NCBI GenBank assembly: GCA_937128055.1
Contig: CAKZMC010000160.1
Coordinates: forward strand, 1-53,987
Direction of reading: 5' to 3'
DNA from: an uncultured Actinomycetes bacterium
GTDB taxonomy: Bacteria > Actinomycetota > Geothermincolia > Geothermincolales > RBG-13-55-18
Length of the DNA stretch: 53,987 nucleotides
This document shows, in pieces, positions 17,840 to 33,246 of this stretch. Positions within the stretch are counted from its first letter, which is position 1. Every line of letters starts with the position of its first letter. Made by a program: the position numbers and the translations under genes. A model generated the notes under the pieces. That model was given only the letters and a program-made list of their open reading frames with translations. It had not been told where the DNA came from and searched no databases.

Positions 17840-18124
17840 CTACTTCAAGTTCTCGATGAAGGTGTCGACGTCGATGGCCGGCAGGGTCATGATGCGCACG
17901 GTCCCGCGCGACGCCAGTTGCACGGAGATGCGGCCAATAGTCTCGTTGTTCGGCGCCTCCACGATGTTGATGAAATCATACTGCCCCAGCACCACGTACT
18001 GCGAGATCACCTTGCCGCCCATCGCCTCGACGTCCTTGTTCACTTCCTTGATGCGATCGGGGTTCTTGGTCAGGGTCGCACATCCCTCGTCCGTCAGACG
18101 GCTGATGAGGATGTAGGTCGCCAT
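17840..18124 (-). CDS. GYD-domain protein
   Basis: 94 aa with LGQYD motif and the typical N-terminus ATYILISRLTDEG. Confidence 0.85.
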   Translation of the reverse strand: MATYILISRLTDEGCATLTKNPDRIKEVNKDVEAMGGKVISQYVVLGQYDFINIVEAPNNETIGRISVQLASRGTVRIMTLPAIDVDTFIENLK

Positions 18125-18427
18125 AAGCCTTCCTCCTTTCCTTGACTATCCATCCGCCGATGCAACTATCTTAAGTATCTACCCCCTTGGCCACCGGGAT
18201 AAACGCGCGCGGGCGGTGCCGCCGCCGCGCGCGGCAATGATGCCCGCCGGGCGCAGGGAGGATGGCAGCGGGTAATATATGGGCATGCGATGTGATACGG
18301 TAATGGTCTTCTTGGCGGAGGACGGGGCTGGGTTGCGGGCGGGATGCCGGCCGCTTTCCGGGCCCGGGAAGGGTGTTACCCTCCCCGCCTGGAAATGATT
18401 GCATGGTGAGAACGAGGAGGAAAGACC

Positions 18428-19279
18428 ATGGCCTCGATCCCGCGTTGCAGGCTGGTGGTTGTCTACCACCCCGAGTTCGCCACCCGCGGCTATCCCGCCT
18501 TGCGGGAAAGGGTGGCGCCGGCATTCGATGAGCTGCGCTCCAGGGGTTTGCTGGGGCGGGAGGGGGTAAGGCTCGTGGAGGCAGAGCCGGCGCAGGAGCG
18601 CCTGGCCGCGAGGGTCCATAGCGAGCTGCACATCCAGGGCGTCAGAAACAGCGGCTATTACGAGATCGCCCTGCTCTCGGCGGGGGCGGTGATCATGGGC
18701 GCCAGGGAAGTGGCCGAGGAGAGGGCGGACGCCGCCTTCTCTTTCGTGGGCGCCGCCGGGCACCACGCCAGCCACGACGGTTTCTGGGGCTTCTGTTACC
18801 TGAACGACGTGGCCATGGCCGTGACCTCGCTGCGCGAGGAGGTGGGAACCAGGCGCATGGCCATCATCGATATCGACCCCCATTTCGGGGACGGCACGCG
18901 GGATATCCTGGGAGGGGATCCCGAGATACTGCACGTGAACTTCCATTCCGGCTACCTGATGAAGGAGGCCCGGGGACCCCACAACCTGGACCTCGCCCTG
19001 CCCCACAACGCCGGCGACGTGCAGTTCCTGCGCGCGGTGGACCAAGCCCTGCTGGCGGCGGAGGACTTCGGGCCCGAGCTCCTCTTCATCGTCTTCGGGC
19101 ACGACAGCCACCGCGAGGATTACGGAGCCTTCGAGTTGAGCGACGAGGCGTACCGCGAGTTCGCGGTGAAGGTAAGGGAAGTTTTTCCATATCGCGTGTG
19201 TTACGTGCTCTCGGGAGGCGCGCGCCCCATGGTGGCTCGCAAGGCCATCGGGGACGTGGTGGAGGTGCTGGCGGGCTGA
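18428..19279 (+). CDS. histone deacetylase-superfamily amidohydrolase
   Basis: GHHA, GFCYLND, DIDPHFGDG and GHDSH motifs. Confidence 0.85.
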   Translation: MASIPRCRLVVVYHPEFATRGYPALRERVAPAFDELRSRGLLGREGVRLVEAEPAQERLAARVHSELHIQGVRNSGYYEIALLSAGAVIMGAREVAEERADAAFSFVGAAGHHASHDGFWGFCYLNDVAMAVTSLREEVGTRRMAIIDIDPHFGDGTRDILGGDPEILHVNFHSGYLMKEARGPHNLDLALPHNAGDVQFLRAVDQALLAAEDFGPELLFIVFGHDSHREDYGAFELSDEAYREFAVKVREVFPYRVCYVLSGGARPMVARKAIGDVVEVLAG

Positions 19280-19339
19280 GCCGTCTCCGCGGTTTCGGAG
19301 AGGGCTCAGGAGTCACGGCAGAAAGGCGGAAGGCAGCGA

Positions 19340-21253
19340 ATGAGGCGTTTTAAAGCGATTTTCCTGACACTCGCCATGGTCACCGCGCTCTTTCTCCCGC
19401 CCGTGGGCGCCCCCCGCGCACTCGCCGCGGACGGCCCGCCCCGCGTGGTCTTGACCTTCGACGATGGCTACAACCTCGACCACCGCATCCTGGAGTTCCT
19501 CTCCTCGCAGGGGATCAGCGCCACCGCCTTCGTCATCGGGTCGTGGGCGGAGAGGAACCCCTCACTCCTGCAGGAGATGAACGCCCTGGGGTGGGATATC
19601 TGCAACCATACCCAGACCCACCCCTGGCTGACCAGGATCGGCGACGACCAGATCAGGGCCGAGCTCAATACCTGCCAGGCGGTGATCACTTCCATCACCG
19701 GGCAGCAGCATCCCCTTTTCCGGCCCCCCGGGGGGTTCATAGATGCGCGCGTACAGGCGGTGGCCGCCGCTGCGGGTTACACCCCGGTCATGTGGGACCT
19801 GGACAGCGGGGATTCGCGCGGGGTCGATTACCCGGTGCAGGAGCGCGTAGCGTACATGGTGAACGCCGCGCGCGACGGAAGCGTGCTCCTCTTCCACTTC
19901 GGCGGCCGCCAGACCTATGACCTGGTGACCGGCGTGGTGAAGGGGCTGCAGCAGAGGGGCTTCTGCTTCGTCACCATCACGGAGCTTTTCGGGTGGAAAA
20001 GGGTGATAAGGGGCGGCGAGATGAGCCTCGGCGCGAGCGAAACCGCCCGGACCCTGTACTTCGCCGACGGCACCACCGCCGAGGGGTTCGAGGAGTGGAT
20101 CACCGTCTTCAACCCGGGCAGGTCGGAGGTGGACCTGGAGGCTCGTTACTTCACCGCGCAGGGGAGCGTGGTGAAGAATTACAGGATACCGCCGCAACGC
20201 CGCATCTCCGTGCCGGTAAACCAGGAGATCGCCTGGCAGGGAGACGTTTCCGTGCAGTTGCAGGCCTCTTCACCGGTGGCGGCGGAGCGGACGCTCTTCT
20301 TCGACCGGGGCTCGGGGTTATGCGGCGGCTCTCTCTCGCGGGGGACGCGGGAGCCTGGGAAGCTCTTCTATTTTCCCGGCGGCACGACGAGAGAGGGATT
20401 CGAGGAATACCTGAGCATCTTCAACCCCTCCGGGACGCAGGCGCTCCTGGACCTGCAGTTCCTCGGCTGGGGCAGGGCCGATACGGTCAAGGCGGCGGTT
20501 CCCCCTCTCGGCAGGGCGACCCTGCGCGTCAACGATCTGGTGCCGCCGGGTGACCACGTGCTGGTGGCGAAGTGCGACACCCCGGTGGTCATGGAGAGGG
20601 CGCGGTACTTCTCCTACGGCGGCACGATCAAAGGTTCCAGTTGCACCTCGGGAAGCGGTCCGCCCAGGGGCGACTGGTATTTCGCGGGGGGGACCACCAG
20701 GAACCTCTCCGATTCCTACCTCTCCGTGTACAACCCCTGCCGGGAGGCCACCTGGCTGCGCCTGGCGCTCTCGGGGTCGGACGGTTCGCGCGTGGAGGAG
20801 GAGCTCATCCTGCAGGCGGGCGAGCGGAGAGACCTCTTTCTCGACTCCTACCTGCCTCCGGATATCGATTACGCGGCCAGGGTGGAGAGCCTGCTGCCCG
20901 TGATGGCGGAATGCAACACCTTCTTCCTTTTCAACAACGTGGCGGGGGGTTCCTGCGAGAGCGGGAGCGAGATCCCCTGCGAACACTGGTGTTTCGCGGA
21001 AGGATGCACGGCCCCCGGCTTTTCGGAGAGCCTGACCCTCTTCAATCCCCTTGAAGGAGCCCAGAAGGCTAAGGTAACCTTCATGCTGGGTTCTGGCGAG
21101 AAGGTGACGCGCACCTACAAGCTGCCCTCCCAGGGAATGGTGAGCGTGGACGTGGCCGCGGAGGTAGGCCAGGCCAACGAGGTCGCAATGGTGATACAGG
21201 CCCAGCGGGAGATCATCGCGGAGCGCACCTTCCTCTTCGAGTTCAGGAGGTAG
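19340..21253 (+). CDS. secreted polysaccharide deacetylase (CE4/NodB) with C-terminal WYFAEG/DUF5719-type repeats
   Basis: Signal peptide; TFDDG, HTQTH, RPPGG, LFH; four repeats of xYF(A/P)xGxT...NP...AER. Confidence 0.88.
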   Translation: MRRFKAIFLTLAMVTALFLPPVGAPRALAADGPPRVVLTFDDGYNLDHRILEFLSSQGISATAFVIGSWAERNPSLLQEMNALGWDICNHTQTHPWLTRIGDDQIRAELNTCQAVITSITGQQHPLFRPPGGFIDARVQAVAAAAGYTPVMWDLDSGDSRGVDYPVQERVAYMVNAARDGSVLLFHFGGRQTYDLVTGVVKGLQQRGFCFVTITELFGWKRVIRGGEMSLGASETARTLYFADGTTAEGFEEWITVFNPGRSEVDLEARYFTAQGSVVKNYRIPPQRRISVPVNQEIAWQGDVSVQLQASSPVAAERTLFFDRGSGLCGGSLSRGTREPGKLFYFPGGTTREGFEEYLSIFNPSGTQALLDLQFLGWGRADTVKAAVPPLGRATLRVNDLVPPGDHVLVAKCDTPVVMERARYFSYGGTIKGSSCTSGSGPPRGDWYFAGGTTRNLSDSYLSVYNPCREATWLRLALSGSDGSRVEEELILQAGERRDLFLDSYLPPDIDYAARVESLLPVMAECNTFFLFNNVAGGSCESGSEIPCEHWCFAEGCTAPGFSESLTLFNPLEGAQKAKVTFMLGSGEKVTRTYKLPSQGMVSVDVAAEVGQANEVAMVIQAQREIIAERTFLFEFRR

Positions 21254-21287
21254 AGGCGCCGTGGCGGGAAGAGCGCGGAGGTGGGAG

Positions 21288-21749
21288 ATGTTGAGACGCG
21301 AGCTGGTGACCAGCCTGGAGGTGGAGGCCGACAGGGAGCGCGCATGGGAAGTGTTGACGGACCTGGAGGCTTACCCGGAGTGGAACCCCATGATACGCAG
21401 GGCGAGCGGTGAGCTGCGGCCGGGAAGCGTCTTGCGGGTGCGTTTCGAGCCGGAGGGGATGCGGGGGCGCGACTACCGGCCCAGGCTGAGCGTGGTGGAT
21501 CCTCCGGGCGAGCTGCGGTGGACGGCTTTCCTGAACCTCCCGGGGGTGTTCGCCTTCGAGCATTACTGGTTGCTCGAGCGGGCGGGGGAGGGGAGAACCC
21601 TGCTGAAACACGGCGTCTCCGTTTCCGGGATCCTGGCGCCCCTTGCATGGAAAATAGTGGAAAGAAGCTCACGGGGCCCCTTCGAGGCCATGAACCGGGC
21701 GCACAAGGAGAGGGCGGAGGGGCCGGCGGGGAAAGGCGGCGGCGGGTAG
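21288..21749 (+). CDS. SRPBCC/polyketide cyclase-like protein
   Basis: AWEVLTDLEAYPEWNP and FEAMNRAHKERAE motifs; SD GGAGGTG. Confidence 0.85.
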   Translation: MLRRELVTSLEVEADRERAWEVLTDLEAYPEWNPMIRRASGELRPGSVLRVRFEPEGMRGRDYRPRLSVVDPPGELRWTAFLNLPGVFAFEHYWLLERAGEGRTLLKHGVSVSGILAPLAWKIVERSSRGPFEAMNRAHKERAEGPAGKGGGG

Positions 21750-21886
21750 GGAGGAAGGACCGGGCGGGGGGCGAAGCCCCGGTTCCTCGCTTTCCGGGAG
21801 CGTCCGCGCGGCGTTGCGCTTGAGCGTTGGCCGGGGGAGGCGTGTTGTCCTCCCCGCGGCGGTGCCTTATCATTTCCCGTAGCGAC

Positions 21887-21961
21887 GGGCGTTTAGCTCA
21901 GCGGGAGAGCGCCTGCCTTACAAGCAGGAGGTCGTGGGTTCAAATCCCGCAACGCCCACCA
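21887..21961 (+). tRNA. tRNA-Val (anticodon TAC)
   Basis: Cloverleaf: acceptor GGGCGTT/AACGCCC, anticodon arm CCTGC-CTTACAA-GCAGG, T loop TTCAAAT, encoded CCA. Confidence 0.97.
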
Positions 21962-21969
21962 CTTGAGAC

Positions 21970-22001
21970 GCCTGGCCGGAGGAGAACCCGGCCAGGCTTT
22001 T
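21970..22001 (+). terminator. intrinsic terminator after tRNA-Val
   Basis: GCCTGGCCGG/CCGGCCAGGC stem followed by TTTT. Confidence 0.7.
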
Positions 22002-22150
22002 CTACATCGTGCAATACGGATCGGAGCCTCCGTCTTGCGATGGATAACGGGAAATTCCTGCGGAAAAAAAGAACAACAATATGAATATTAAGTTATCTTC
22101 CAACGCATACGATTAATTGACTTAGACGGGATATGAAGGGAGTGGTGGAT

Positions 22151-23385
22151 GTGCTGGGAAAAATTTGCAGTCAATGCGGCGCGGAATCAGCATCCAGGAA
22201 TATTTCTGCCCACGATGCGGTACCACCTTGTTCGCCGACGATACGGCGGAGTCGCCGATAAAAGGCCCGCCCACCGCCGCCATGGGGGCCCCCGGGCGGC
22301 ATCCGGCGGGGGGTCAGCAAGGCATGCCAGGAGGGGCGCCCGGGGGCATCGCGGCAAGCTCCCAGAACGCCAGCACCTTCCGCCATGAGGGATAGGGCAC
22401 CTATAGCGTTGTATGGACAGGGTTTCCCGGCACGCAGCGCCAAGCTGTTTCCGGCACGGGCATGGGCGTTTCCGTGAGCAGGGAGCAACTGCGGCGCATG
22501 ATCGAGGAGGACAGGCGAAGGAGGAAGAAGATCCTGCTCATTTCCATTCCCGCCGCTTTATCCGTCTGTGCCGTCGTCTTTTTACTGCTTTTCTTCCTCG
22601 TTTTCCACAAAGGCATGAGTCCGGAGGGGTACAAGAAGGAAGCCCTGAGGGTCCACGATAGCGTCATCACCAAGCTCCAGGCTATCGAGAACGGCTGGAA
22701 CCGGAGCGATTACAGCGACAAGCCCTACAGCTGGTGGTACGACAAGCTACGCGACGAGTTCAACGAAGTCGCCTCGGTGATCAGCCAGGCGCTTGAGGAA
22801 TTGCAGAGACTGCGACCTCCCGAGCAATGCGCGTCGCTGGCTGAGGAGGCGCTTTCATACTACGAAGAGGCAGCCGATTACGCTGCCCGCGCGGTACCGG
22901 TCTTCACGTTCGCGGGGGATTGGGCGCGCATATGGGAAGGATGGGTGGATACCCCCTTCGTATCGGATGGCATGAGGGAGGACATGACTCCTGCGGATGC
23001 CGTTTCCCTCATCGACCAGGATATCGCCTGTATCGACCAGGTGACCAAGAGCTTCCAGGAGCTAAGTGCACCCGTGGAATGCAGCAACATGCTAAACGGT
23101 GTATTATCCCTCATCCAGGAACAGAGGACGCTTTTCGAGCGCCTGAAGAGGCCGATCATCAATTACGACGTGGACGCCTTTGAGGTCCTGTGCGCGGACT
23201 GAGACCATTTCGACAACACCGCTGTGGAGAGAATTGTAAAATTATGGGAAGACATGGATTCTTTTCACGACGAGTACCTGGGGCTTCTCGACAAGGGATA
23301 CGATATCCTGGCTATGCTCAAAGGCTTGCAGATGGAGTTGGAAGACGAGAGCGTGGAAGGAACCACCGCTTTCCTGGCGCCGTGA
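22151..23385 (+). pseudogene. decayed zinc-ribbon / single-TM membrane protein gene
   Basis: A 1-nt deletion near 22186 splits CSQCG from FCPRCG. In-frame TAG at 22393 and in-frame TGA at 23200; the frame continues to TGA at 23385. Confidence 0.75.
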
Positions 23386-23474
23386 CCTGAGATGCCGGTA
23401 ATGCAAGCGGGGCGGCTCGGGAATACGCGGTTTCCCTTCATCGCCCGCCGCGCTTTTTTGCTGCATTTGACAGG

Positions 23475-23545
23475 GGGCATGCGACCCAGCGGGTGAGCGC
23501 CTACCTTACAGGCAAGAGGTCATGGGTTCAAATCCCTTAAGGCCC
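23475..23545 (+). pseudogene. degenerate near-full-length copy of tRNA-Val(TAC) lacking its CCA end
   Basis: Colinear with 21887-21957 (CAGCGGG, GAGCGCCT, CCTTACA, GAGGTC, TGGGTTCAAATCCC); diverges at TTAA 23537-23540. Confidence 0.85.
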
Positions 23546-23630
23546 TTGGAAGACCTATCCCCACTTATCGTCCTGGGGGAGGCGGTATGAAAAAGGGCCA
23601 CGGTGGCCCCATGTTATTGGTGGGCGCTAA
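23537..23630 (-). repeat. ~93-bp tRNA-3'-end-derived repeat unit
   Basis: Reverse complement matches 29633-29726 at 91/94 nt; bounded by TTAA and CTAA cores. Confidence 0.92.
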
Positions 23631-23664
23631 AGGATTTGAACCCATGACTTCCTGCTTGTAAGGC
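23618..23664 (-). repeat. inverted 3' half of tRNA-Val (att-like fragment from anticodon to CCA)
   Basis: Reverse complement reads GCCTTACAAGCAGGAAGTCATGGGTTCAAATCCTTTAGCGCCCACCA. Confidence 0.9.
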
Positions 23665-23694
23665 CTATCCAGATTAGAAACCAAGGATTGCGGC

Positions 23695-24360
23695 TCAGGA
23701 GAAGAGGCCCTCGCGGAAGGCTTTTAGTGCATAGTCGCGGTCGTTTTCAACCAACCCTCGAATGGCCCGCGATGCTTCCTCAGCGTCTCTGCCCGTGAAC
23801 GCGTCCATGGCCTCCTGGAAAAACTTGAGATTTTCCAGGAGGTTTTCTTTCTGCATGATCAGAGCGGCGTATTCAATTCGTGCGGTAATAGGCCATAGAT
23901 ACAGCACCACGTCCTCCAGGATCTTGTTCTTACTGGATCTGCAAGAATGGTAAGCGACCTGAAAGGAGCCCTCGAGGTAGCCCTCGAGATCACCCGTTCT
24001 GGCGCTCTCACGGAGCTTCTCCAGCGCCTTTTCTATGTTCAGGAAGCTTCCCTCGTCTTGATTCTCCACCCCCCTGAAAGCAACCAGGCCGAGGATCTCC
24101 TTCAGCACGTCCGCAAGCCAGATTATTGTTTCCTCCGTTATCTCGGACACTCTCGCTCCGCGGCGCGGCGTAAGCTCCACCAGCTTCTGCTTTTCCAAGA
24201 TGCGAAGCGCCTCTCGCAAAGGTGAACGGCTCACGCCGAGCTCGTCAGCAAGTCTCGTCTCGACGATCTTCTGGCCCGGCTTCATCTCCAGGCTGATGAT
24301 CCTCTGACTGAGATAGGCCGCTATCTGCTCGGGAAGGTTTTCCGATGGTTTGAAGGGCAT
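23695..24360 (-). CDS. GntR-family regulator (FCD domain)
   Basis: PGQKIVETRLADELGVSRSPLREAL HTH with a C-terminal FCD-like helical domain; divergent from the GRE gene. Confidence 0.92.
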   Translation of the reverse strand: MPFKPSENLPEQIAAYLSQRIISLEMKPGQKIVETRLADELGVSRSPLREALRILEKQKLVELTPRRGARVSEITEETIIWLADVLKEILGLVAFRGVENQDEGSFLNIEKALEKLRESARTGDLEGYLEGSFQVAYHSCRSSKNKILEDVVLYLWPITARIEYAALIMQKENLLENLKFFQEAMDAFTGRDAEEASRAIRGLVENDRDYALKAFREGLFS

Positions 24361-24544
24361 ATCTGGCTCCCCGGGAATACACAGCCGCCGTTTGCCTGTT
24401 CCGAAAACGTGGTCCTTATCATCATGTAAGGATTTTACTTTATTGCAGGCGAATGCGGAACGTAACCATGCTGCGCATGCTCTTTCAGGCGGGAAGCGTC
24501 TGTTGCTTGGCAGAGAATCTTATTGATGATTATTGATGAAGAGC

Positions 24545-24583
24545 TTGACATAGCATACAGTATACAATATACAATATGATACA
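24545..24583 (+). promoter_or_regulatory. GRE promoter with GntR-type ATACA operator repeats
   Basis: TTGACA at 24545, followed by ATACA at 24555, 24562, 24569 and 24579 overlapping the -10 region. Confidence 0.6.
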
Positions 24584-24794
24584 AAGGAATCTATGAGCCT
24601 GAATCGATCGATGGTCGCTATTCGCGAAGTAGTTGGGCGGATTCATGCGCCATTTTAGGGCTGTTCCTGCGGCTCTAGCTGCGACGTGGCGGTGGCTTTC
24701 TGGTCGACACAGGAACGGAGGAAGCGAAAACACGTGAAGATTTTTCGGATTTCAGCATATCGGTCGGCGTTGTTCTCCAGAGGGGAAGGGGGAG

Positions 24795-27473
24795 GTGTCT
24801 CGCATGGGCGTCGCTGTTAAGCAATTGAACGCATCCCGCATCACCAAGGCAGTCCAGATAAAGGACGCCGAGCGGCCTTCGGTGAGCATGCCGGTCGAAG
24901 TCAAGCTTGATCCCAACGTCAGGATCTGCACAGAGCGCGCTGAGCTCGTTACTGAATCCTACCGCATGACGGAAGGGGAACCCTGGGTGATCAGGAGGGC
25001 GAAAGCGCTCGACCACCTCCTGCGCAACATGACCATCTACATACTGGAGGGCGAGCAGATAGTGGGCAATTACGCCAGTACCCCGGATAGCCTGCCTACC
25101 TACCCGGAGATATCATGCCGCTGGCTGGATGAGGAACTCGAGGGCGCTTTCAGGGAAAACATCGATGAAGCGGGCAGGGCGAGGCTGCGAGAGATTCATT
25201 CCTTCTGGTACGAGCGGAACGTCGAGGGCAGGATACTGGCCACCTTGCCCGATGACCTCAGAGTTTTTATCGAGAAGAGCAAGTCCACGGCCATGTTCAC
25301 CATCTTCTGGCCTTTGGGGTGCTTCACCCTCGATCTCAGGCATTGGGTTTTCCCCAGGGGGCTGCGCGGTATCGTCGAGGAGATAGGCAGGCTGCGCGGG
25401 GAGCTGCGTGCGGATGATCCGGAATACGGTGAGAAGAAGGATTTCTACGACGCCGCCGAGATATGCTGCGAGGCGGCGATTGCTTTCGCGCGGCGCTACG
25501 CGGAACTGGCTCGTAAGAAAGCGGCCTCCGCACGAGGAAAGGTCAGGGAAGATTGCCTCAGGGTAGCAGAAGTATGTTCGCGCGTGCCCGAGAACCCGCC
25601 CCGGACCTTCCACGAGGCGCTGCAGGCGGTTTTCTTCTGCCACCTGATCAGCGCGCAGATAGACTGGTACAGCGTGGGCCTAGGCCAGCGTTTAGACCAG
25701 CTTCTCTGGCCGTATTACGAAGCCGATAAGGAAGCCGGGAATATCGACTACGACCGCGCCGTGGAGCTGCTCGAGTTCCTCTGGATCAAGCTGGACGATC
25801 TGGGACAGATAAACCCCGTGACCACCTCTATCTACCAGGCGGGTGGCACGAAGTTCCAGAACATCTCGATCGGCGGGGTGGATGAGCACGGCAACGACGC
25901 CTCCAACGAGCTTTCCCTGGCAGTTTTGGACGCGACCATCGATGTACGTACGCCCCAGCCGTCCATATGCCTGCTCTTCCACGAGAAAATGGACCCGAGG
26001 CTTCTGGATAAGGCCATAGAATGCATTGCAACAGGCCAGGGACAGCCTGCCATATTCAACAACGACGTCTGCGTGAAATGGCACCTGGACAAGGCGCTGG
26101 AGATACTGTACCCGGAGTCGGGGGTCCATATCGGCGTGCCGTGTCTCGGTCTGGTGCAGAAAGCGGATCGGGTTGTGAGGAGGATGATAGCGCGGCTGCC
26201 GAGGCGCGTTCGCCAGCGAATCGAGTTATCCATAGACGAATGGCCCAATGCGGTGTACACGGGCGGGGGCGCCGTCGGGGATGCGTTGCGCAAGGTCGCA
26301 AAGAAAACGGGTTTCTGGGACGCCGAGAAAGGGATGGCGATAGCTCGCGGCTGGGCTCCGACCGCTTGCGTCGGAGGCGGACTGCAGGGCAGAGTGACCA
26401 TCCAGGGGACCCTTACTTCGATCCTCATCTTCACGGTCCTCGATTTCGTCAAATGCTTCGAGTACGTGATGTACCAGGGCGTCGAGCCGGAGACCGGTGA
26501 GCTGGTGGGGGCGCCCACGCCCGACCCCCGTACTTTTAAGACCTACGAGGAATTCCTCGAGGCTTTCATGCGGCAGATCGAGTTCCAGGTAGACCGGGCC
26601 AACCGCGCCTACCAGGTTGCGGAGAAGATTTACGAAGAACAGATGCCGCGACCATTCGCCTCGGCCTGCACGGAGACCTGCGTGAGGCGCGGTAGGGACG
26701 GAATGAGGAAGGGCGATGCGTCCATAAGCGAGATCTTCAGCATGGGCAGCGTGAACGCTGCCGAATGCCTCGCAGCGGTGAAGAGACTGGTTTTCGAGGA
26801 AAAATCCGTCACCATGGACGAACTGATCGCCGCCTGCGCGGCCAACTGGGAAGGTTACGAGGACCTGCACCGCAAGTGCCTGGAGGTGCCGAAGTTCGGC
26901 AACGACGACGATTACGTGGACGGCATCCTGGCAGAATTCTACCGCAAGGCACAGGCAGTGGTGCATTCCCACAGGGACCACTGGGGAAACGGCCTGCAGT
27001 TGGAGTCATCGCTCGCGGCCGGATATTATGTGGGCGGCCTCGTCTGCGGCGCTACCCCGGATGGTCGGGTCAAGGGAGAGACGGTCTCCGACGGACAGCT
27101 CTCTCCCATGCACGGGCGCGACGTGAAAGGACCTACGGCGGTACTGAAATCCTGCTCCAAGGTCGATCCTCACAAGACCTGGAACCAGTTATGCAACCAA
27201 AAGATAAACCCCGCCTTCCTCAAGGGCGAGAATCGCAAGCTCTTTGCCGATTACCTGCGCACCTGGCTGAAGTTCGGCAACTGGCACGTACAGTTCAACT
27301 GCCAGAGCGCCGAGGAGCTCAGGGATGCCGTGGCGCACCCTGAAAGGCACAAGGACCTGATCGTGCGGGTGGCCGGGTACAGCGCATATTTCATTGACCT
27401 GGCTCCAGGTCTGCAGCAGGATATCATCGCCCGCACGGAACAGGACCTGAGCGAGTTCGCCAGCAGAGCGTAA
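24795..27473 (+). CDS. glycyl radical enzyme of unknown function
   Basis: C-terminal HVQFN...LIVRVAGYSAYF glycyl motif, FGNDDDYVD, TPDGR; single active-site Cys in ACVG. Confidence 0.93.
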   Translation: MSRMGVAVKQLNASRITKAVQIKDAERPSVSMPVEVKLDPNVRICTERAELVTESYRMTEGEPWVIRRAKALDHLLRNMTIYILEGEQIVGNYASTPDSLPTYPEISCRWLDEELEGAFRENIDEAGRARLREIHSFWYERNVEGRILATLPDDLRVFIEKSKSTAMFTIFWPLGCFTLDLRHWVFPRGLRGIVEEIGRLRGELRADDPEYGEKKDFYDAAEICCEAAIAFARRYAELARKKAASARGKVREDCLRVAEVCSRVPENPPRTFHEALQAVFFCHLISAQIDWYSVGLGQRLDQLLWPYYEADKEAGNIDYDRAVELLEFLWIKLDDLGQINPVTTSIYQAGGTKFQNISIGGVDEHGNDASNELSLAVLDATIDVRTPQPSICLLFHEKMDPRLLDKAIECIATGQGQPAIFNNDVCVKWHLDKALEILYPESGVHIGVPCLGLVQKADRVVRRMIARLPRRVRQRIELSIDEWPNAVYTGGGAVGDALRKVAKKTGFWDAEKGMAIARGWAPTACVGGGLQGRVTIQGTLTSILIFTVLDFVKCFEYVMYQGVEPETGELVGAPTPDPRTFKTYEEFLEAFMRQIEFQVDRANRAYQVAEKIYEEQMPRPFASACTETCVRRGRDGMRKGDASISEIFSMGSVNAAECLAAVKRLVFEEKSVTMDELIAACAANWEGYEDLHRKCLEVPKFGNDDDYVDGILAEFYRKAQAVVHSHRDHWGNGLQLESSLAAGYYVGGLVCGATPDGRVKGETVSDGQLSPMHGRDVKGPTAVLKSCSKVDPHKTWNQLCNQKINPAFLKGENRKLFADYLRTWLKFGNWHVQFNCQSAEELRDAVAHPERHKDLIVRVAGYSAYFIDLAPGLQQDIIARTEQDLSEFASRA

Positions 27474-27613
27474 TCGGAAGACAGCCTTTCTCCAGCTGCT
27501 TGATGGCAGGGGAAAGGCGTGAGATGACCGCGCTGGGGAAAATGGGCTGGAGACGCAATAACAGTTTTAAGGGCTTAAGCGGGAGGTCCGGTCGTCGTGG
27601 CGGTGACGACGTT

Positions 27614-28546
27614 GTGGAGGGCCTGGTCTTCAACATCCAGAAATTCAGCATCCATGATGGCCCCGGCATCAGGACTACCGTCTTCCTCAAGGGATGTCCC
27701 CTGCGCTGCCCCTGGTGCTCCAACCCCGAATCCATCAACCCCTTTCCAGAGGTGCTCGCCAAGTTCGAAAACCTCTGCCTGGATTGCGGCAGGTGCAACG
27801 AGGTCTGCCCTCGCGAAGCCATCGTGGTCACCAAGAAGGATCGTGCCGACGTCGACGACGGCGGGCACATGCGCTCAATAGACCGTGATCTCTGCGAGCG
27901 GTGCATGAAATGCGTCGAGGTATGTCCCAGCGGCGCGTTGAGCAAGGTGGGCGAGGTAAGAACGGTGGGCGAGATAATGGGCCTGGTGGAGCAAGACCGC
28001 CTCTTCTATGAGACCAGCGGCGGAGGCATAACCCTATCGGGGGGAGAACCGCTGTTGCAGCCGCACTTCACCCTTGCGCTATTACGGGAAGCGAAGAGGA
28101 GAAGCATCCACACCGCCGTGGACACCAGCGGCCACGCCCCCCGTGAGGTGCTGGAAGGCGTTCTGCCGTATGTGGACCTGGTGCTCTTTGACATCAAGCA
28201 CGCCGACCCGGTGATCCATCGCGATACCGTGGGGGTGGATAACCTGCTGATATTTAACAACCTTGAATATCTTTCTGGTAAGACGAGAATATGGATCCGC
28301 GTGCCTCTTATACCGGGTTTCAACGACGATAAGGCGGGAATCTGTGCGATAGCGGAAAAGATACGTCGCTTGTGTTTCGATAAGCTGTGCATTCTGCCAT
28401 ATCACAACTGGGGGAGCGGAAAGTACGCCGCTTTAGGGAGAAGTTATCCTCTGAGCGAAAAAGATGAGACCAATCCCGCCTGCCCCTGCCTGGCGCAGGC
28501 GCTTTTCAGGGCGGCGGGCGTGCAGGATTGCGAAATCGTGCGATGA
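27614..28546 (+). CDS. glycyl-radical activating enzyme (radical SAM with ferredoxin insert)
   Basis: HDGPGIRTTVFLKGCPLRCPWCSNPES, two CxxCxxCxxxC clusters, SGGEPL. The start could be upstream (ORF track 27500). Confidence 0.93.
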   Translation: MEGLVFNIQKFSIHDGPGIRTTVFLKGCPLRCPWCSNPESINPFPEVLAKFENLCLDCGRCNEVCPREAIVVTKKDRADVDDGGHMRSIDRDLCERCMKCVEVCPSGALSKVGEVRTVGEIMGLVEQDRLFYETSGGGITLSGGEPLLQPHFTLALLREAKRRSIHTAVDTSGHAPREVLEGVLPYVDLVLFDIKHADPVIHRDTVGVDNLLIFNNLEYLSGKTRIWIRVPLIPGFNDDKAGICAIAEKIRRLCFDKLCILPYHNWGSGKYAALGRSYPLSEKDETNPACPCLAQALFRAAGVQDCEIVR

Positions 28547-28636
28547 TGGTGGGGGCCAGGATCTGGCTGCCACTCGAACGGAGTCGGAGTGCGTTAAACT
28601 CGTCTTCAACAGTTACATTTTGAGATTACCAGGTAA

Positions 28637-28697
28637 GGTGGCGTCAAGGGATTTGGAAGGCCTGTCCCCACTTGTCGTCCTCGCTTGGCAGTGATGG
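28637..28697 (-). repeat. partial, diverged copy of the repeat unit (cassette junction)
   Basis: Reverse complement contains GGACGACAAGTGGGGACAGGCCTTCCAAATCCC-TTGA-CGCCACC. Confidence 0.8.
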
Positions 28698-28727
28698 TTA
28701 TGCTGAATACGCGAGGAAGTCGATTTT

Positions 28728-29120
28728 TCAGTCCGAAGCGTGTGTCTCGAAAAAGGCAACTGCTTCTTCCTTGGATATATCCCCCGCTGCAACCCCGAGG
28801 CAAAGCCGTTTTAGTTCCTCATTCGACGCCTCGAGCTGCACGCCGTTGATGTTCAAGAATATCTCGGCGGCTACAACCGCCGTACGCTTGTTGCCGTCAA
28901 GAAATGGGTGGTTCTTGCAGATATGAAAGAGGTACGCCGCGGCCATGGCGGGAAGGCTCTTATGAAGGAACTCACCTGCTAAGGCAGCAGTCGGCATCGC
29001 CACCGCACTTTCGAGCATTCCACGGTCTGCGATGCCCTCGGCCCCGCCGAACTCGGCTATCATGCGTGCGTGGATCTTCAGTATGTCTTCGAACGAGAGG
29101 AATACGGGTTCCACGCTCAC
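28728..29120 (-). CDS. doc: Doc-family (Fic) toxin
   Basis: HPFLDGNKRTA Doc-type motif; 130 aa; overlaps the antitoxin stop codon. Confidence 0.92.
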   Translation of the reverse strand: MSVEPVFLSFEDILKIHARMIAEFGGAEGIADRGMLESAVAMPTAALAGEFLHKSLPAMAAAYLFHICKNHPFLDGNKRTAVVAAEIFLNINGVQLEASNEELKRLCLGVAAGDISKEEAVAFFETHASD

Positions 29121-29350
29121 GAATCAGCCAGTTCCTTGAGCACCTTCCCGCGCTCCCCCACGATTCGGTCCAGGTGACGCTCGAGCTCCTCCGGGTCCAC
29201 CCGCCGAGGGCTCACGGGAGTGATGATTATCGACCCGTTGCTCACCGTCAACTGGACTTCCTTGCCCTCTTCAAGCCCGACCATCTCCATGATCGGCAGA
29301 TCCAGTATGAGGGCGTTGCTGTTTCCCACTTTCTGCAGTCTCTTTATCAT
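29117..29350 (-). CDS. AbrB/MazE/SpoVT-type antitoxin
   Basis: KRLQKVGNSNALIL swapped-hairpin motif; C-terminal LKELA; upstream of doc. Confidence 0.9.
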   Translation of the reverse strand: MIKRLQKVGNSNALILDLPIMEMVGLEEGKEVQLTVSNGSIIITPVSPRRVDPEELERHLDRIVGERGKVLKELADS

Positions 29351-29365
29351 TGTGCCGACTCCTTT

Positions 29366-29388
29366 ATGTTATAACATAATTATAACAT
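29366..29388 (-). promoter_or_regulatory. putative TA autoregulatory operator
   Basis: Perfect palindrome ATGTTATAACAT at 29366-29377 plus an adjacent TTATAACAT copy, just upstream of the antitoxin. Confidence 0.6.
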
Positions 29389-29543
29389 CATTTGATCCCA
29401 AGTCAATCCCGCGCAGCAAGACAAGAATCGCAGCCCCTTATAGGGCATGACCGCAGAAGCTGCTGGTTGGCGCCGGCAGACAGATCAAGCCGAGGCAGCA
29501 TTAAGCGAGGCATGGAGTCCGGCTTCTATTGCTCTGGTGGGCG

Positions 29544-29814
29544 TTAAGGCCTCTGGAAGACCTATTCCAGTTTATCCTACTGGGGGAGGCGGTATGAAAA
29601 AGAGCCGCAGGCGCCCCAAAAATTGGTGGGCGTTAACGCCCACCAATAACATGGGGCCACCGTGGCCCTTTTTCATACCGCCTCCCCCAGGACGATAAGT
29701 GGGGACAGGTCTTCCAAGCGCCTTAACGCCTGCCAATCACCAGGGCCCCTGCGGCCTCCATCACAACGCCTCATCCAGGACGACAAGTGGGGATAGGCCT
29801 CCCCGGGGCCTTAG
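29544..29814. repeat. three adjacent ~93-bp units (one inverted, two direct) joined at TTAA cores
   Basis: Cores TTAA 29544, TTAA 29633, TTAA 29723 and TTAG 29811. A 26-bp perfect palindrome at 29622-29647 marks the head-to-head junction. Confidence 0.92.
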
Positions 29815-30100
29815 CGCACGCGGAGGCATAAAGGCTGAGAGCACCCGCCTCTCCGTGCTAGGACCGGCGAAGTAGCGCCGCGGCCTTGATCGCCGGCGGC
29901 GGGCGGCGGTGAGGCCGACATGCCGCGTGCCGGCCAGCACCGGCACGGTGTAACCGGCCCGATAGCGCGGCAGGGCCGTGAAACGGGCATCCCGCCGCTT
30001 GCCCCTCGCCACCCTCAAAAAGCCCGGTCAAGGAGGCGGAAAAACATCCCCCTTAAAAGGGCTTCGCGCTTGCGTTCTGAGGATTTGCGGGAAACATGCC

Positions 30101-30129
30101 TTGATATATAAGCACGAAGGGGTTATATT
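30101..30129 (+). promoter_or_regulatory. sigma70-type promoter of the RRM gene
   Basis: TTGATA, 17-bp spacer, TATATT. Confidence 0.55.
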
Positions 30130-30164
30130 GTATGTGCATTGGTTTTTGAGGATGGCGTGAATCG

Positions 30165-30196
30165 TCCCGAGGAGACCTGCTCCTCGGGATTTTTTT
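30165..30196 (+). terminator. terminator-like hairpin in the 5' leader of the RRM gene
   Basis: TCCCGAGGAG/CTCCTCGGGA stem followed by T7, immediately before SD AAGGAGGTGA. Confidence 0.55.
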
Positions 30197-30214
30197 GAGA
30201 AGGAGGTGAGAGAA

Positions 30215-30487
30215 GTGAAGATATACGTCGGCAACCTGAGTTACGCGACGAGTTCCAGCGACCTGCAAGGCGCTTTCGGGAAGTTCGGAGCGGTGGACTC
30301 GGCGGAAGTGGTCATGGACCGCAACACCAACCGCTCCCGCGGTTTCGGTTTCGTGGAGATGTCCGACGAGGGCGAGGCAAAAGCCGCCATAGCCGGCCTT
30401 AACGGCAAGGAGATGGACGGCCGCACCCTCAAGGTCAGCGAGGCAAAGCCGAGAAGGGCGGAGACGAGGAGCAGCTACCGCTTCTGA
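30215..30487 (+). CDS. single-RRM RNA-binding protein
   Basis: RNP2 IYVGNL, RNP1 RGFGFVEM, C-terminal VSEAKPR. Confidence 0.95.
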   Translation: MKIYVGNLSYATSSSDLQGAFGKFGAVDSAEVVMDRNTNRSRGFGFVEMSDEGEAKAAIAGLNGKEMDGRTLKVSEAKPRRAETRSSYRF

Positions 30488-30767
30488 TCTCGTACGGTTT
30501 GGCGGCAGCGCGAGGTTTGCTCGCAAGGGGACAGGCGGTGAGGTCGCCGCCTGTCCCTCCCTTCCCGGGCAAGACTCGTTGCCGGCATCCGGAGCCTGCG
30601 GGGCCGCACCCTTTCCGGCGTCCGACGTTGTGCTCCAGGGGCGCCATTCCGCCGGTCTGCCCTGGGGGGAAAGGCCCGCGCACCGTGTTCGCCGGTTGAC
30701 CGCGGCGAAAACCCGGACATATCATGATTTTGCATGATTCTGCAGCAATAAAGCGGATGGAGGTCGC

Positions 30768-31562
30768 ATGATGGAGAGAACCCCCGAGGAAAAGACGGAA
30801 TTCCTCATGGAACTGGCGGAAGCGCCCATCGCGCGCCTGGAGGCGGAACTGGCCTTTCGCTTTCTTTACAAGCACCTCGAGGCGGATGTGAGAAGGGAGG
30901 GCGAGGGGCTCAACGTCCTCGACGTGGGAAGCGGGCTGGGGGAGGTCGCCCTGCGTTTCGCGGCGCTGGGCCACAAGGTCACCATGCTGGAACCCCAGGC
31001 CTGCCTGCTGCAGACGGCGGAGGAAAGGGCAAGGGAGCAGTTGCCCGAGCGGGCCTCCCTCCTGCGTTTTCTGAACGAACGCATTGAGAACCTGGAGGAG
31101 AGCCTGACGGACGAGTTCGACCTCATCATCTGCCACGAAACCATAGAGTACGTGGACGATCCCCTGAAAGCCCTGAACGTCATCACCCGGGTGCTGCGTC
31201 CCCGCGGCAAGCTCTCCCTGGTCTTCCTCAACCGCTACGGCCTGGTCATGGAGAAGGTGGTCGTGGAGGGCAACGTGAAGGAAGCCGTGGAAGCCTTTGA
31301 TATGGAAGAGTTTCCCACACAGTTGCACCATGGCCGCGGACACCTGTATTCCGATGCGGAGATGATGAACCTACTCGACCCACTGGGGTACAACCTGGAG
31401 GGGCAGTACGGGCTGCTCATCTTCTCCGAGTTCATCGACTGCTCCCTTTTCGAAGAAGGGCAGTGCTACCGGGGCATGCTGGAGCTCGAGGAGAGGGCGG
31501 GGCAGGAGCCGCAACTCAAGGGCATCGGTAAGTACATCCAGCTCATCTGCTCCAAATCCTGA
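30768..31562 (+). CDS. class I SAM-dependent methyltransferase (SmtA/CmoM-like)
   Basis: VLDVGSGLG, FDLIICHETIEYV and LRPRGKLSL motifs. Confidence 0.85.
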   Translation: MMERTPEEKTEFLMELAEAPIARLEAELAFRFLYKHLEADVRREGEGLNVLDVGSGLGEVALRFAALGHKVTMLEPQACLLQTAEERAREQLPERASLLRFLNERIENLEESLTDEFDLIICHETIEYVDDPLKALNVITRVLRPRGKLSLVFLNRYGLVMEKVVVEGNVKEAVEAFDMEEFPTQLHHGRGHLYSDAEMMNLLDPLGYNLEGQYGLLIFSEFIDCSLFEEGQCYRGMLELEERAGQEPQLKGIGKYIQLICSKS

Positions 31563-31704
31563 GGGCCGGGGGCGTCGCGGGAGAAGCGCCCTTACCGGCA
31601 GCGGGCTCGCGCGGGGGGCGGAAGCCAGCCGCGAAGGTGAGGCGGCCGTCGCGGGCTACCCGGTATGAAAGCCTTTTATCCGAAAGGGCGGGTTTCTCGC
31701 GCTC

Positions 31705-32964
31705 TCACAGGAAACGGCGCAGGGAAGCGGCATAGCCGTGGAGGCCCCTCTTCACCGTGGCGTAGGTGAGGAGCTGCTGGTAGAGGCTCTCGTCCGCCAG
31801 GTCCCGCCAGCGCAGCTGCCGCTTGGTCTTGGTCAGGAAGAGCATGGGTATCCAGGTGCCTGTGTTGATGTAATACTTACCTCTCTTGCCGCCCAGCACC
31901 GGCTGCAGCTCGTTTGAATAATAGCGGTGGTCATGACCGAAGACGACCACGTCGATGTCCTGGTCCGAGAGGAGGAGATCGCGTGCCGCCACCGAGAGGG
32001 CGTCCTCCCTGGTGGCCAGGGAGTCGAGGAGGAGCCCGTCAGTCGCCAGCTCCGATGTCTCCCCTTCTTCCTCCTCCGGGAGCTCCGGGCTCACCCGCTC
32101 CGCGTCCTCCACTCCCTGCAGCTCCACGCGGGCGCGGCCGGAGATGAAATCCATGGTCCTCTTCAGCGAATATCCCCAGGTGTCCAGGCGCCCCTCCCGC
32201 CGCCGCCGCTGCAGCTCCCGGCTTTCCTTGAAAGGGGGAAAGCCCACCTTGGACATGAAGCGGAGCAGCTTGTACCCGTAGACCAGCTTGAACCACCAGT
32301 TCTCGTCCTGGATGCCCATGAAGACCATGTTGGGGATGGGCCTGACGTTGTTGATGAAGGGACTCCTTTCGCTTATCATTCCTTTGGCAAAATATTCCAA
32401 GAAACAGTTGCTCCAGCTCCTCTCCAGCCTCAGCTCCCCCGACTTGGGATCGCGCAGGAAGGGGTGGGTGAAGTTCTCGAAGGCGCTGTCCGCGAAATAC
32501 TGGTTGCCATGCTCCACGTACAGGCCGCCGTCCCGGTAGATGCCCGTGTACTCGAAGTGGAAGTGCTCCGAGTCGGGGGTCCCGAATTCCTCCAGGAGGC
32601 GGTCGCGCACCTGCGGCCAGAAGAGGTCCACGTCATGGTTGCCCGGCACCAGCACCAGGCGATGGCCGTCTTCCATGAAGCGGCGCAGGGAAAGGAAGCA
32701 GTCCCGGTGGGCTTCCAGGACGCGCTCCAGCTTGTGCAGTGATTCCGCCTCCGTGCAACCCAGGCGCTGGAAGGGCTTGCTTACCGTCTTCTCCAGGGTG
32801 ACGCCGACGAAATCGATGAAATCCCCGTTGATGATAAGCTCCGAGCTGCGCCGCCTGGCGATGGTTTCCACGAAGGACCGGAAGGCGGCGTCCTGCTGGA
32901 AGTCGTCCAGGTAGTCCCCTGCCCCCAGGTGCAGGTCGCTTATTATGAATCTGGTCCTGGGCAT
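31705..32964 (-). CDS. calcineurin-like metallophosphoesterase
   Basis: SDLHLG, NGDFIDF, PGNHD, EHGN, FGHDH and YINTGTW motifs. Confidence 0.85.
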   Translation of the reverse strand: MPRTRFIISDLHLGAGDYLDDFQQDAAFRSFVETIARRRSSELIINGDFIDFVGVTLEKTVSKPFQRLGCTEAESLHKLERVLEAHRDCFLSLRRFMEDGHRLVLVPGNHDVDLFWPQVRDRLLEEFGTPDSEHFHFEYTGIYRDGGLYVEHGNQYFADSAFENFTHPFLRDPKSGELRLERSWSNCFLEYFAKGMISERSPFINNVRPIPNMVFMGIQDENWWFKLVYGYKLLRFMSKVGFPPFKESRELQRRRREGRLDTWGYSLKRTMDFISGRARVELQGVEDAERVSPELPEEEEGETSELATDGLLLDSLATREDALSVAARDLLLSDQDIDVVVFGHDHRYYSNELQPVLGGKRGKYYINTGTWIPMLFLTKTKRQLRWRDLADESLYQQLLTYATVKRGLHGYAASLRRFL

Positions 32965-33246
32965 CGGCGCTCCTTGTCGGGGCCGCCTGCAAGCACGGGG
33001 CGGCAGGCTGAACAACAATTGAGTATAGCATCATGCGGCGCGCCGCACATGCCCAGGCGGGAGAGCGGGAAGCCCGCCCGCGCATCGCCCGGCCCCGCAT
33101 GCGGGAGCGCGCTGCCGGGCGGGTTAGGGGAAGCGCTACGCCCCGGCCATGTTGAAACGGGCGCTTTCCTGTATATTAGTCCTGTATGTTGGAACGGAGC
33201 CGCATACGGACGTGGCGGGAAAAGGGCTCTTGCGCGGAGGAGAGGG

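Follow-up and report, generated by a model that had tools for sequence, protein, structure and literature searches.

What are the short tRNA-like repeats that follow a tRNA-Val gene in an uncultured actinobacterial genome, and have they served to capture genes? The stretch analysed here (hereafter the window) comprises 53,987 nucleotides, positions 1 to 53,987 of contig CAKZMC010000160.1 from an uncultured Actinomycetes bacterium (order Geothermincolales; assembly GCA_937128055.1). Its sole tRNA gene, a tRNA-Val(TAC) at 21887-21961 with the core GCAA (ARAGORN and Rfam), is followed by repeats that alternate with gene-less units and with operons. A first-pass annotation, made from the letters alone, had proposed an integron-like cassette array anchored at this tRNA. 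On balance, we lean towards a lineage-specific system of small cassettes, integrase-less mini-islands that would have inserted one after another at tRNA-Val 3' ends in three of seven related genera through a recombinase acting in trans. It is most likely that the array in the window is an inverted, decaying example of a system better kept in two other genera.

The genome that holds the window (G000; genomes, contigs and loci are designated by G, C and L numbers) is 2.7 Mb in size and 99% complete. It was compared with its family, a set of 24 genomes from seven genera (g1-g7).

The repeats and the site they form

All seven four-base cores listed in the first-pass annotation were found when the sequence was read directly: TTAA at 23537, 29544, 29633 and 29723, CTAA at 23627 (TTAG on the opposite strand), TCAA at 28644 (TTGA on the opposite strand) and TTAG at 29811. 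The four gene-less units described there were recovered as well. A repeat search paired 23537-23630 with 29633-29726 (94 nt, 97% complementary), identified 29544-29636 and 29723-29814 as copies of about 80% identity and added part of a copy at 28646-28681. Because three of the five copies are on the minus strand, the array in the window has no common orientation. The 16-mer GGACGAYAAGTGGGGA, with up to two mismatches, matched four times in the window against 0.08 matches expected, and none of 100 shuffled sequences reached four. Two tRNA-Val-like pieces surround the first unit: 23487-23545 on the plus strand (59 nt, 86% identical to the intact tRNA) and 23618-23664 on the minus strand (47 nt, 87% identical to the tRNA 3' end).

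Alignment of 46 copies from the window and its relatives revealed a site longer than first described, with about 60 nt of further conserved sequence to the left of TTAA. It consists of a left arm (L, ~60 nt), TTAA, the tRNA-Val 3' end CGCCCACCA and a terminator, the last two forming the right arm (R, ~45 nt); both arms are highly identical among copies, and the whole occupies ~75-110 bp around the core. The consensus reads TTCATnCCGCCTCCnCnAGGACGATAAGTGGGGnnAGGTCTTCCAAGGGCC, TTAA, CGCCCACCA, and the junctions carry TTAACGCCCACCA or near variants. Two types of terminator follow the CCA: type A is a GGGCC...GGCCC hairpin with a T run, and type B reads (G/A)AGCAATAGAAGCCGGGC...GCCCGGCTTT. All four left/right pairings were seen, that is, tRNA or L joined to type A or type B. 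Many sites have decayed (TTGA, TTAG, ATAA and the damaged CGCCACC).

The tRNA-Val genes of the relatives end in ...GGTTCAAATCCC TTAA CGCCCACCA (the end read as ...CCCTTAACGCCCACCA), with the same core as the site. Site and tRNA have 13 nt in common, and the last 30 nt of the site resemble a shortened T arm. That the repeats regenerate the tRNA-Val 3' end, as proposed earlier, was thus borne out, with the same 13 nt shared by the tRNA-Val genes of relatives. In the TTAA-type tRNA-Val of relatives (e.g. L042, 17581-17655), the pair A49-T65 replaces G49-C65 (canonical numbering), and the next T-stem pair is a T-T mismatch instead of the T-G wobble of the GCAA type. These differences at the core imply that the core used by the cassettes is a lineage-specific tRNA allele.

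In the 46-copy alignment, invariant and >90% columns in AAGTGGGG..AGGTCTTCCA and in CCTTAACGCC are separated by free columns, and no conserved fold was detected (RNAalifold, -2.0 kcal/mol, covariation term -0.01). Because conserved blocks alternate with free columns and conserved pairing is absent, the pattern fits protein-binding DNA rather than RNA. It is very improbable, in our view, that the element acts as a functional RNA, a tRNA-like 3' module with a terminator that would stabilise or process cassette mRNAs. The canonical terminators and the CCA-ending tRNA-like tail agree with such a role, and the element would form the 3' untranslated region in co-oriented cassettes such as AbrB-Doc. 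On the other hand, besides the lack of covariation, Rfam at its gathering threshold matched the true tRNA only, the genes oppose the site in many cassettes, and the 5' partner of the acceptor stem is absent. A small reverse-strand open reading frame (ORF) in the unit, with an SD-like (Shine-Dalgarno) GGAGG and an ATG, was also rejected: the ATG is not kept across the aligned copies, and conservation does not follow codons.

Distribution of the site

Within G000, matches to the unit with E <1e-5 were confined to 23537-29726 of the window contig, and the remaining matches had E >1. The search of the source genome suggested by the first-pass annotation therefore placed the 94-bp unit at this locus only; without a copy elsewhere in the 2.7-Mb genome, a dispersed repeat of the miniature inverted-repeat transposable element (MITE) or repetitive extragenic palindrome (REP) kind was rejected. 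The unit was found in 15 of the 24 family genomes, namely in g1 (G000 and G001), in all ten genomes of g4 and in all three of g7, and was absent from the nine genomes of g2, g3, g5 and g6.

Searching with the 94-nt unit (nhmmer) gave 49 matches, of which five fall in the window and 44 in the 20 loci fetched from relatives, with at least one match per locus. All copies within each of these 20 loci lie on a single strand. A tRNA-Val (TAC or CAC) was detected by ARAGORN in nine of them, always at the head of the array and in the array's orientation, and a cargo-less unit of ~90 nt directly follows the tRNA in eight of the nine. Many of the tRNA-free loci stop at a contig edge.

We also scanned all prokaryotes, with one genome per species, for a 19-nt pattern of 17 specified bases and obtained 99 stretches. 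Four Anaerolineae-type matches were inspected (L101, L120, L098 and L123) and set aside as chance or coding matches; they fall in a conserved coding stretch, K-W-G-Q-V-F, which we take to belong to an RNA-polymerase subunit. This stretch matches the 19-nt pattern in many Chloroflexota genomes and produces false positives in a motif-based census of the site. Matches to an extended site pattern occurred only among Actinomycetota / Actinobacteria records of metagenome-assembled genomes (MAGs), one of which is Candidatus Solincola (Candidatus Geothermincolia at NCBI). The five extended-pattern loci that were traced (L103, L130, L159, L160 and L161) belong to four genomes with integrase coordinates equal to those of G006, G007, G008 and G022, which had already been counted. 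Three pattern scans of viral contigs returned three chance matches, none and none, respectively.

Cassettes and their probable exchange between genera

The AbrB-Doc DNA of the window, of G011 (g4) and of G022 (g7) is homologous only from the TTAA of one site to the next core, and the neighbours of this cassette differ in all three genomes. The earlier claim that the repeats are discrete cassette boundaries holds here, where homology is bounded by sites; it fails as a general rule, because not every interval between repeats is a cassette (the 1.6-kb interval is considered below). The Doc protein of the window is 87% identical to the cassette Doc of G011 and 81% to that of G022, and three copies in G015, a member of a different genus, match the 94-nt unit at 97% identity. 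In comparison, the core protein encoded upstream of the tRNA is 80% identical to that of the congener G001 and 54-55% to those of G008, G011 and G022. Since the identity of Doc and of the unit across genera is far above that of the flanking core protein, the comparison points to exchange of cassettes between genera, and the window copy was probably acquired from another genus and is inactive by now.

A comparison of cargo across relatives had also been suggested, and it revealed no fixed content: the identity, order and orientation of cargo vary among the arrays of different genomes. Bounded units span 0.09-6.5 kb and often hold a single toxin-antitoxin operon. Cargo in other arrays includes Doc (with a second Doc family), ParE-RHH, AbiEi, an FGGY kinase with a URO-D-like protein, SfLAP, a P-type ATPase, TetR, zinc-ribbon proteins and a 1260-aa DUF5719 surface protein. 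In many cassettes, such as ParE-RHH and Doc in G022, the direction of the genes is contrary to that of the site, and the toxin-antitoxin cassettes have their own promoter regions with palindromic operators. At L048 (G010:C20, 2357-7369), a glycyl-radical enzyme (GRE) of 842 aa, 34-36% identical to the GRE of the window, lies with an activase between two standard sites; thus, GRE operons recur as cargo. The window pseudogene described below and the zinc-ribbon protein beside the G015:C66 array proved unrelated, as did two compared 302-aa ORFs. At L047 (G015:C3, 3353-8964), the unit after tRNA-Val is followed by a truncated integrase, a 1167-aa helicase-like ORF (with an N run inside) and a 547-aa ORF, which looks like a defence-type island.

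The terminators offer a hint as to how cassettes might arise. In g1, those of the native tRNA-Val(CAC) genes are type B-like in G000 and type A-like in G001, with cores of CCAG and not TTAA. The R ends of cassettes resemble the sequence behind native tRNA genes, as though captured from there, a likeness expected if a cassette can form from chromosomal DNA that lies between the tRNA and an L site further on. We tentatively entertain, as a possibility somewhat short of even, that this is an independent form of integron-like capture, in which a ~110-bp site mimicking tRNA-Val would bound recombinase-free, operon-sized cassettes for toxin-antitoxin, defence and anaerobic metabolism that dock serially at tRNA-Val genes and circulate between genera, any DNA between tRNA and L could be converted into a cassette, and a recombinase, either resident or borne by an unbinned plasmid or phage, would act at the palindromic TTAA.

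Organization of the locus

The features of the window are as follows.

21887-21961, plus strand: intact tRNA-Val(TAC), GCAA type, with its native terminator hairpin to ~22005 (ARAGORN, Rfam; syntenic with the sister species)
22133-23389, plus strand: native zinc-ribbon membrane protein, pseudogene (stops in read-through translation; intact orthologue in G001)
23475-23540 (approximate), plus strand: pseudo-tRNA-Val(TAC), TTAA type, full-length and mutated, with its acceptor 3' end severed at TTAA 23537-23540
23537-23630, minus strand: empty 94-nt unit, in the order CGCCCACCA, type-A terminator, L arm, TTAA
23618-23681, minus strand: tRNA-Val 3' half (positions 29-75) and motif TTTCTAATCTGGATAG, an attR-type scar of a classical anticodon-loop integrase and one end of the GRE island
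23695-24360, minus strand: regulator of the GntR/FCD family, cargo (Pfam PF00392, PF07729)
24795-27473, plus strand: GRE of the PFL2/dehydratase group, cargo (Pfam PF02901, PF01228)
27500-28546, plus strand: GRE-activating radical-SAM enzyme, cargo (Pfam; NCBIfam TIGR02494, 346 bits)
28644-28683, minus strand: L arm of the Doc cassette with the degenerate core TTGA, then CGCCACC, a damaged copy of the tRNA 3' end
28728-29120, minus strand: doc toxin, cargo of the 0.9-kb cassette (Pfam, NCBIfam)
29117-29350, minus strand: abrB/mazE-type antitoxin of the same 0.9-kb cassette (Pfam, NCBIfam)
29499-29547, minus strand: R end of the Doc cassette, TTAA, CGCCCACCA and a type-B terminator with a decayed hairpin
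29544-29636, minus strand: diverged empty unit, ~80% identical (repeat search, nhmmer)
29624-29645, no strand: perfect palindrome TGGTGGGCG-TTAA-CGCCCACCA, an inverted-R-TTAA-R joint, reciprocal of the joint at 23537
29633-29726, plus strand: empty 94-nt unit, the reference copy (sequence, repeat search, nhmmer)
29723-29814, plus strand: diverged empty unit, CGCCTGCCA ... TTAG, the last site of the array
30127-33000, plus strand: native right flank, where 84-87% identity to G001 resumes

The gene content given by the first-pass annotation, GntR-GRE-activase and AbrB-Doc, agrees with the Pfam and NCBIfam assignments. The limits of the GRE ORF (24795-27473) are mechanical and its real start may lie later; in NCBIfam it matched the subfamily TIGR01774 only and stayed under every equivalog cut-off. 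The doc-abrB cassette (28728-29350) has its own promoter and operator.

The sister species G001 has the same deacetylase gene upstream, a 100% identical tRNA-Val(TAC) and a similar terminator. At the place of 22133-23389 after the tRNA, it carries an intact 416-aa zinc-ribbon membrane protein ORF. The copy in the window has frameshifts, one of them early, and a later TGG-to-TGA change, and falls in no Pfam or NCBIfam family. Because the intact orthologue holds the same position in G001, the 1.6-kb interval, previously read as a cassette, is native chromosome with a gene turned pseudogene, and not cassette cargo. About 85 nt past the zinc-ribbon gene, both species have a tRNA-like sequence, mutated, full-length and of the TTAA type in the window, a shorter relic in G001. 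The anchor of the array is therefore not the intact tRNA-Val, as had been assumed, and is instead this pseudo-tRNA-Val at ~23475-23540, ~1.5 kb further on.

The distance from the tRNA to the point where right-flank homology resumes is ~2.3 kb in G001 and ~8.2 kb in the window. GC content is 0.52-0.61 over 22000-29499, compared with 0.62-0.68 upstream (15000-21999) and 0.57-0.72 downstream. As synteny with G001 breaks and 84-87% homology resumes at 30127, the interval from ~23541 to somewhere in 29814-30126 is a putative foreign block. The conserved right flank of this variable region includes a 90-aa ORF at 30215-30487 with RNP-type (ribonucleoprotein) motifs (RGFGFVEM) and a strong Shine-Dalgarno sequence; a ~68% identical paralogue of it on G001:C34 lies ~8 kb from another site.

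Inverted junctions and the scar of the GRE island

Two joints in the window depart from the usual layout. At 23537, the T arm of the pseudo-tRNA meets an L arm in reverse complement, with TTAA between the two, and at 29633, two tRNA 3' ends meet head to head (TGGTGGGCG-TTAA-CGCCCACCA). Both are the presumed reciprocal products of flipping 23541-29632, or of inserting it backwards, at two TTAA cores. When the flip is undone on paper, the order becomes pseudo-tRNA, unit, type-B terminator, AbrB-Doc, L, GRE operon, tRNA half and three units; every joint is then canonical and the array starts as it does in relatives.

A backward block would also be expected of a transposon inserted in reverse orientation. 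TTAA/YTAR insertion is the behaviour of piggyBac/IS1380 or IS5-type elements, and the array might consist of non-autonomous transposons that enter TTAA/YTAR in either orientation and duplicate 4 bp of the target, with a DDE transposase encoded outside the array. In agreement with this, one TTAA lies between all units, the cores TTAA and TTAG/CTAA fit YTAR, and G000 has DDE transposases (four PF01609 and four rve matches), all on other contigs. However, the terminal inverted repeat shared by cassette ends is only ~5 nt (GGGCC/CGCCC), a single orientation prevails within each of the 20 relative loci, the sole reversed block is that of the window, and exact regeneration of the tRNA 3' end is a hallmark of site-specific integration. 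PF13843 had no match in five array-rich genomes, a search whose control was uninformative. Taken together, we consider a transposon origin quite improbable.

The GRE operon has a different boundary. The tRNA 3' half at 23618-23664 comprises the tRNA from position 29 onwards, with TTTCTAATCTGGATAG before it. A near-identical TTTCTAATCTGGATAG motif in G018 adjoins a tRNA-Val 3' half beside ATTTCTAACA-type arm repeats, and in G021, ATTTCTAACA-type arm repeats lie between tRNA-Val and an intact integrase. Because the boundary is a tRNA 3' half with a P-arm motif, the entry of the GRE island is attributed to a classical anticodon-loop integrase, not to an event at TTAA. The ~5.0-kb GRE interval had been placed between the same cores as the other intervals; this applies to one side of it, the other being the tRNA 3' half (29-75) with its P-arm motif and not a TTAA site.

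Proposed mechanism

The sites and where they occur, the boundaries of the cassettes, the break in synteny and the inverted junctions are observed; from them we infer a recombination chemistry, an enzyme and an order of events as follows. A cassette would consist of CGCCCACCA plus a terminator, the cargo and an L arm of ~60 nt, with TTAA on each side. Joining cassettes head to tail would create L-TTAA-CGCCCACCA-terminator, a mimic of the T arm and acceptor end of tRNA-Val, and insertion at the TTAA of the tRNA itself would restore the tRNA and leave a fresh copy of the target behind the cassette. Strand exchange would take place in or beside TTAA by conservative site-specific recombination, with the recombinase supplied in trans, and the mini-islands would accumulate by accretion, like cis-mobilizable elements.

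The history of the window might then have begun with an old TTAA-type tRNA-Val followed by empty units. The GRE island would have arrived through the classical anticodon-loop integrase, and an empty unit and the AbrB-Doc cassette would have joined at TTAA. Finally, the 6.1-kb block 23541-29632 would have been flipped, or inserted backwards, between two TTAA cores, killing this copy of the tRNA. Its loss would be tolerated because the intact tRNA-Val(TAC) lies 1.5 kb upstream. A palindromic crossover sequence leaves orientation unfixed, as is known for serine integrases and for symmetric lox and FRT spacers; with the palindromic TTAA, a backward event would survive only where the tRNA is dispensable, as in the window. 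Site-specific recombination is favoured because the tRNA end is exactly regenerated, conservation over ~75-110 bp is position-specific, a single core lies between units, left and right halves recombine freely and the two inverted joints are reciprocal.

Search for a recombinase and weighing of the mechanism

The absence of a recombinase in cis, remarked in the first-pass annotation, was confirmed, with no PF00589 match on the window contig. G000 has two tyrosine recombinases, on C167 and C177, which are Xer-like by score. A dif site has 28 bp, with two inverted 11-bp arms flanking a 6-bp spacer; the sequence around TTAA, read by eye and not against the family's own dif site, shows a 14-nt near-palindrome, GGGCC-TTAA-CGCCC, and no ATAA-N6-TTAT-like arms. 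Serine recombinases were absent from G000 and present in two of the 24 family genomes. In five array-rich relatives, 15 of 16 tyrosine recombinase matches lie off the array contigs, and six phage-type integrases inspected in such relatives adjoin other tRNAs or no tRNA. No recombinase was present in any L-TTAA-R-bounded cassette among the ORFs scanned with Pfam, and the ORFs flanking the tRNA of two arrays encode TPR, ABC-2, BNR and response-regulator proteins.

Integrases do occur at tRNA-Val. In L061 (G011:C212, 132-4105), which holds the one match on an array contig, an element with a CHC2 primase, a DUF3631 protein and a 306-aa tyrosine integrase ends 13 nt before tRNA-Val(TAC). A homologue of this integrase in G012 (93%) is split over C58 (1-4808) and C32 (92111-92623). 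An exact copy of tRNA positions 1-37 was found at the far side of the element (G012:C58:4772-4808 and G011:C192), and the element appears to swap the 5' half of the tRNA instead of the usual 3' half. Neither the L site nor the core was found in the expected orientation in 47 kb of G012:C58, and a metagenome scan with the G011 integrase yielded one 26%-identical relative. The integrase of G021:C16 has no close homologue in the family (best 38% identical). In G015:C3, a truncated integrase of this type follows the L-TTAA-CGCCCAGCA joint of a unit; the likeliest explanation is that the unit inserted later, at the TTAA of the tRNA.

Several of our results weigh against the proposed mechanism. Above all, no recombinase tied to the TTAA sites was found across the 24 family genomes, and of the two integrase lineages, that of G011:C212, which duplicates tRNA positions 1-37, was rejected as the driver of the array, and that of G021:C16, which leaves scars of tRNA positions 31-75, is no more than a weak lead; each of these patterns indicates an anticodon-loop crossover. 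The data are assembled sequence only, no sequencing run being listed for the 8.3-kb stretch. The head-to-head joint occurs only in the G000 loci among 194 compared, so the case for cutting exactly at TTAA rests on one event. Comparison of empty and occupied loci past the last site, at six loci, gave flanks that were not orthologous and no single-cassette pair. On G001:C1 (L052, 8990-9830), two sites surround a ParE-RHH cassette, and no tRNA appeared in the 19 kb fetched, which implies that arrays or fragments of them can lie away from tRNA-Val. Moreover, with L and R arms of ~60 and ~45 nt, homologous recombination could occasionally take place and be mistaken for site specificity.

The last point leads to another explanation, in which no dedicated recombinase exists and the arrays either grew by homologous recombination after DNA uptake, via the L and tRNA-end/terminator arms, or are immobile fossils. 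It would account for the lack of a cognate recombinase in 24 genomes, for the high identity of the two arms, for the many decayed sites and for hybrid L arms with the tRNA's ATCCC before TTAA (G022_16624, G010b_10501 and win28644r), which suggest exchange to the left of the core. However, homologous recombination cannot yield L-TTAA-inverted L and inverted R-TTAA-R at the outer edges of repeats, does not explain position-specific conservation across three genera in cassettes of unrelated cargo, and leaves the 90-bp cargo-less units poorly explained by selection for cargo. As plasmids and phages are often missing from MAGs, a recombinase carried by them could also have escaped the search. We thus regard this explanation as unlikely. 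Under the site-specific mechanism, the enzyme acting at TTAA may be a resident Xer-like protein or an unbinned plasmid or phage enzyme, or may no longer exist.

If cassettes do move in this way, they would represent a second route to integron-style stockpiling and shuffling of operons, based on mimicry of a tRNA end instead of a folded attC; to our knowledge, integrons have not been described in this phylum and habitat. The arrays would also provide a concrete site for tracing a new site-specific recombinase, and a short site from high-GC Actinomycetota could be a useful tool. In addition, their movement would explain the spread of toxin-antitoxin, defence and GRE operons among these uncultured anaerobes.

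Comparison with known systems

Our literature search, which left most subscription journals outside, found no description of such an array. Like integrons, the arrays hold small cassettes that each end in a recombination site, include self-promoted toxin-antitoxin cassettes and share sets of cassettes in different orders. attC sites are imperfect palindromes (R''-L''...L'-R') that fold as single strands. In contrast, the unit has the same core in direct orientation at its two ends, not inverted cores, and neither an attC-type hairpin nor covariation was detected. There is also no intI beside the arrays and no attI/Pc platform, and cargo includes multi-gene operons in both orientations with their own promoters rather than a common promoter. 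Integron arrays without an integrase are themselves known, as clusters of attC sites lacking integron integrases (CALINs; PMC7923331). Because the three defining features that were tested (intI, attC and promoterless co-oriented cassettes) are all lacking, the array is not an integron, and the term integron-like in the first-pass annotation does not apply in the sense of membership.

Classical tRNA-targeting islands with tyrosine integrases are said, in an account by Williams from 2002, to use anticodon-loop or T-loop sublocations. As in such islands, the tRNA 3' end is regenerated and a partial tRNA copy stands at the far end, of which the scar at 23618-23681 is an example. Unlike them, with their own integrase and 40-50 nt of true tRNA duplicated, the TTAA sites share 13 nt with the tRNA and have their own diverged arm.

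Cis-mobilizable elements (CIMEs), known for example from streptococci, are att-bounded, integrase-less and stacked at one tRNA site; they are regarded as having decayed from integrative conjugative or mobilizable elements and have been proposed to move by an integrase in trans. The arrays share with them the stacking of att-bounded elements without integrase at a tRNA. They differ in that the integrase-less form is the rule, the cassettes are operon-sized and empty 90-bp units occur; no parental element sharing the L arm turned up.

The closest described case is that of the tandem ssrA islands of Dehalococcoides. They are bounded by 20-bp repeats of the 3' end of transfer-messenger RNA (tmRNA) plus a conserved 15-bp motif upstream that has no counterpart in the gene; insertion takes place in the T-loop or acceptor part, and content varies by strain (PMC3146451). 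Sixteen of them have a serine recombinase module (DsiB), and 15 lack it and are viewed there as cis-mobilizable elements moved by accretion (PMC3146451). Both systems form tandem islands downstream of a tRNA-like gene, with 3'-end repeats and an extra upstream motif. However, while 16 islands of Dehalococcoides have DsiB, all cassettes examined here lack a recombinase, and serine recombinases are nearly absent in the family. The units are also far smaller here (0.09-6.5 kb), the arm has ~60 instead of 15 nt, and the target is tRNA-Val instead of tmRNA. Of the features expected of tandem tRNA/tmRNA islands, a cognate integrase on some of the islands was not found, and the integrases seen at tRNA-Val use anticodon-loop crossovers. 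Boundaries made of 3'-end direct repeats were observed, as were variable content and a start of the array at the target (a pseudo-tRNA at the head in the window). Even on a conservative reading, the arrays clearly enlarge the small class of tandem tRNA/tmRNA arrays in which members without an integrase predominate, and they show three different integration chemistries that converge on one tRNA gene.

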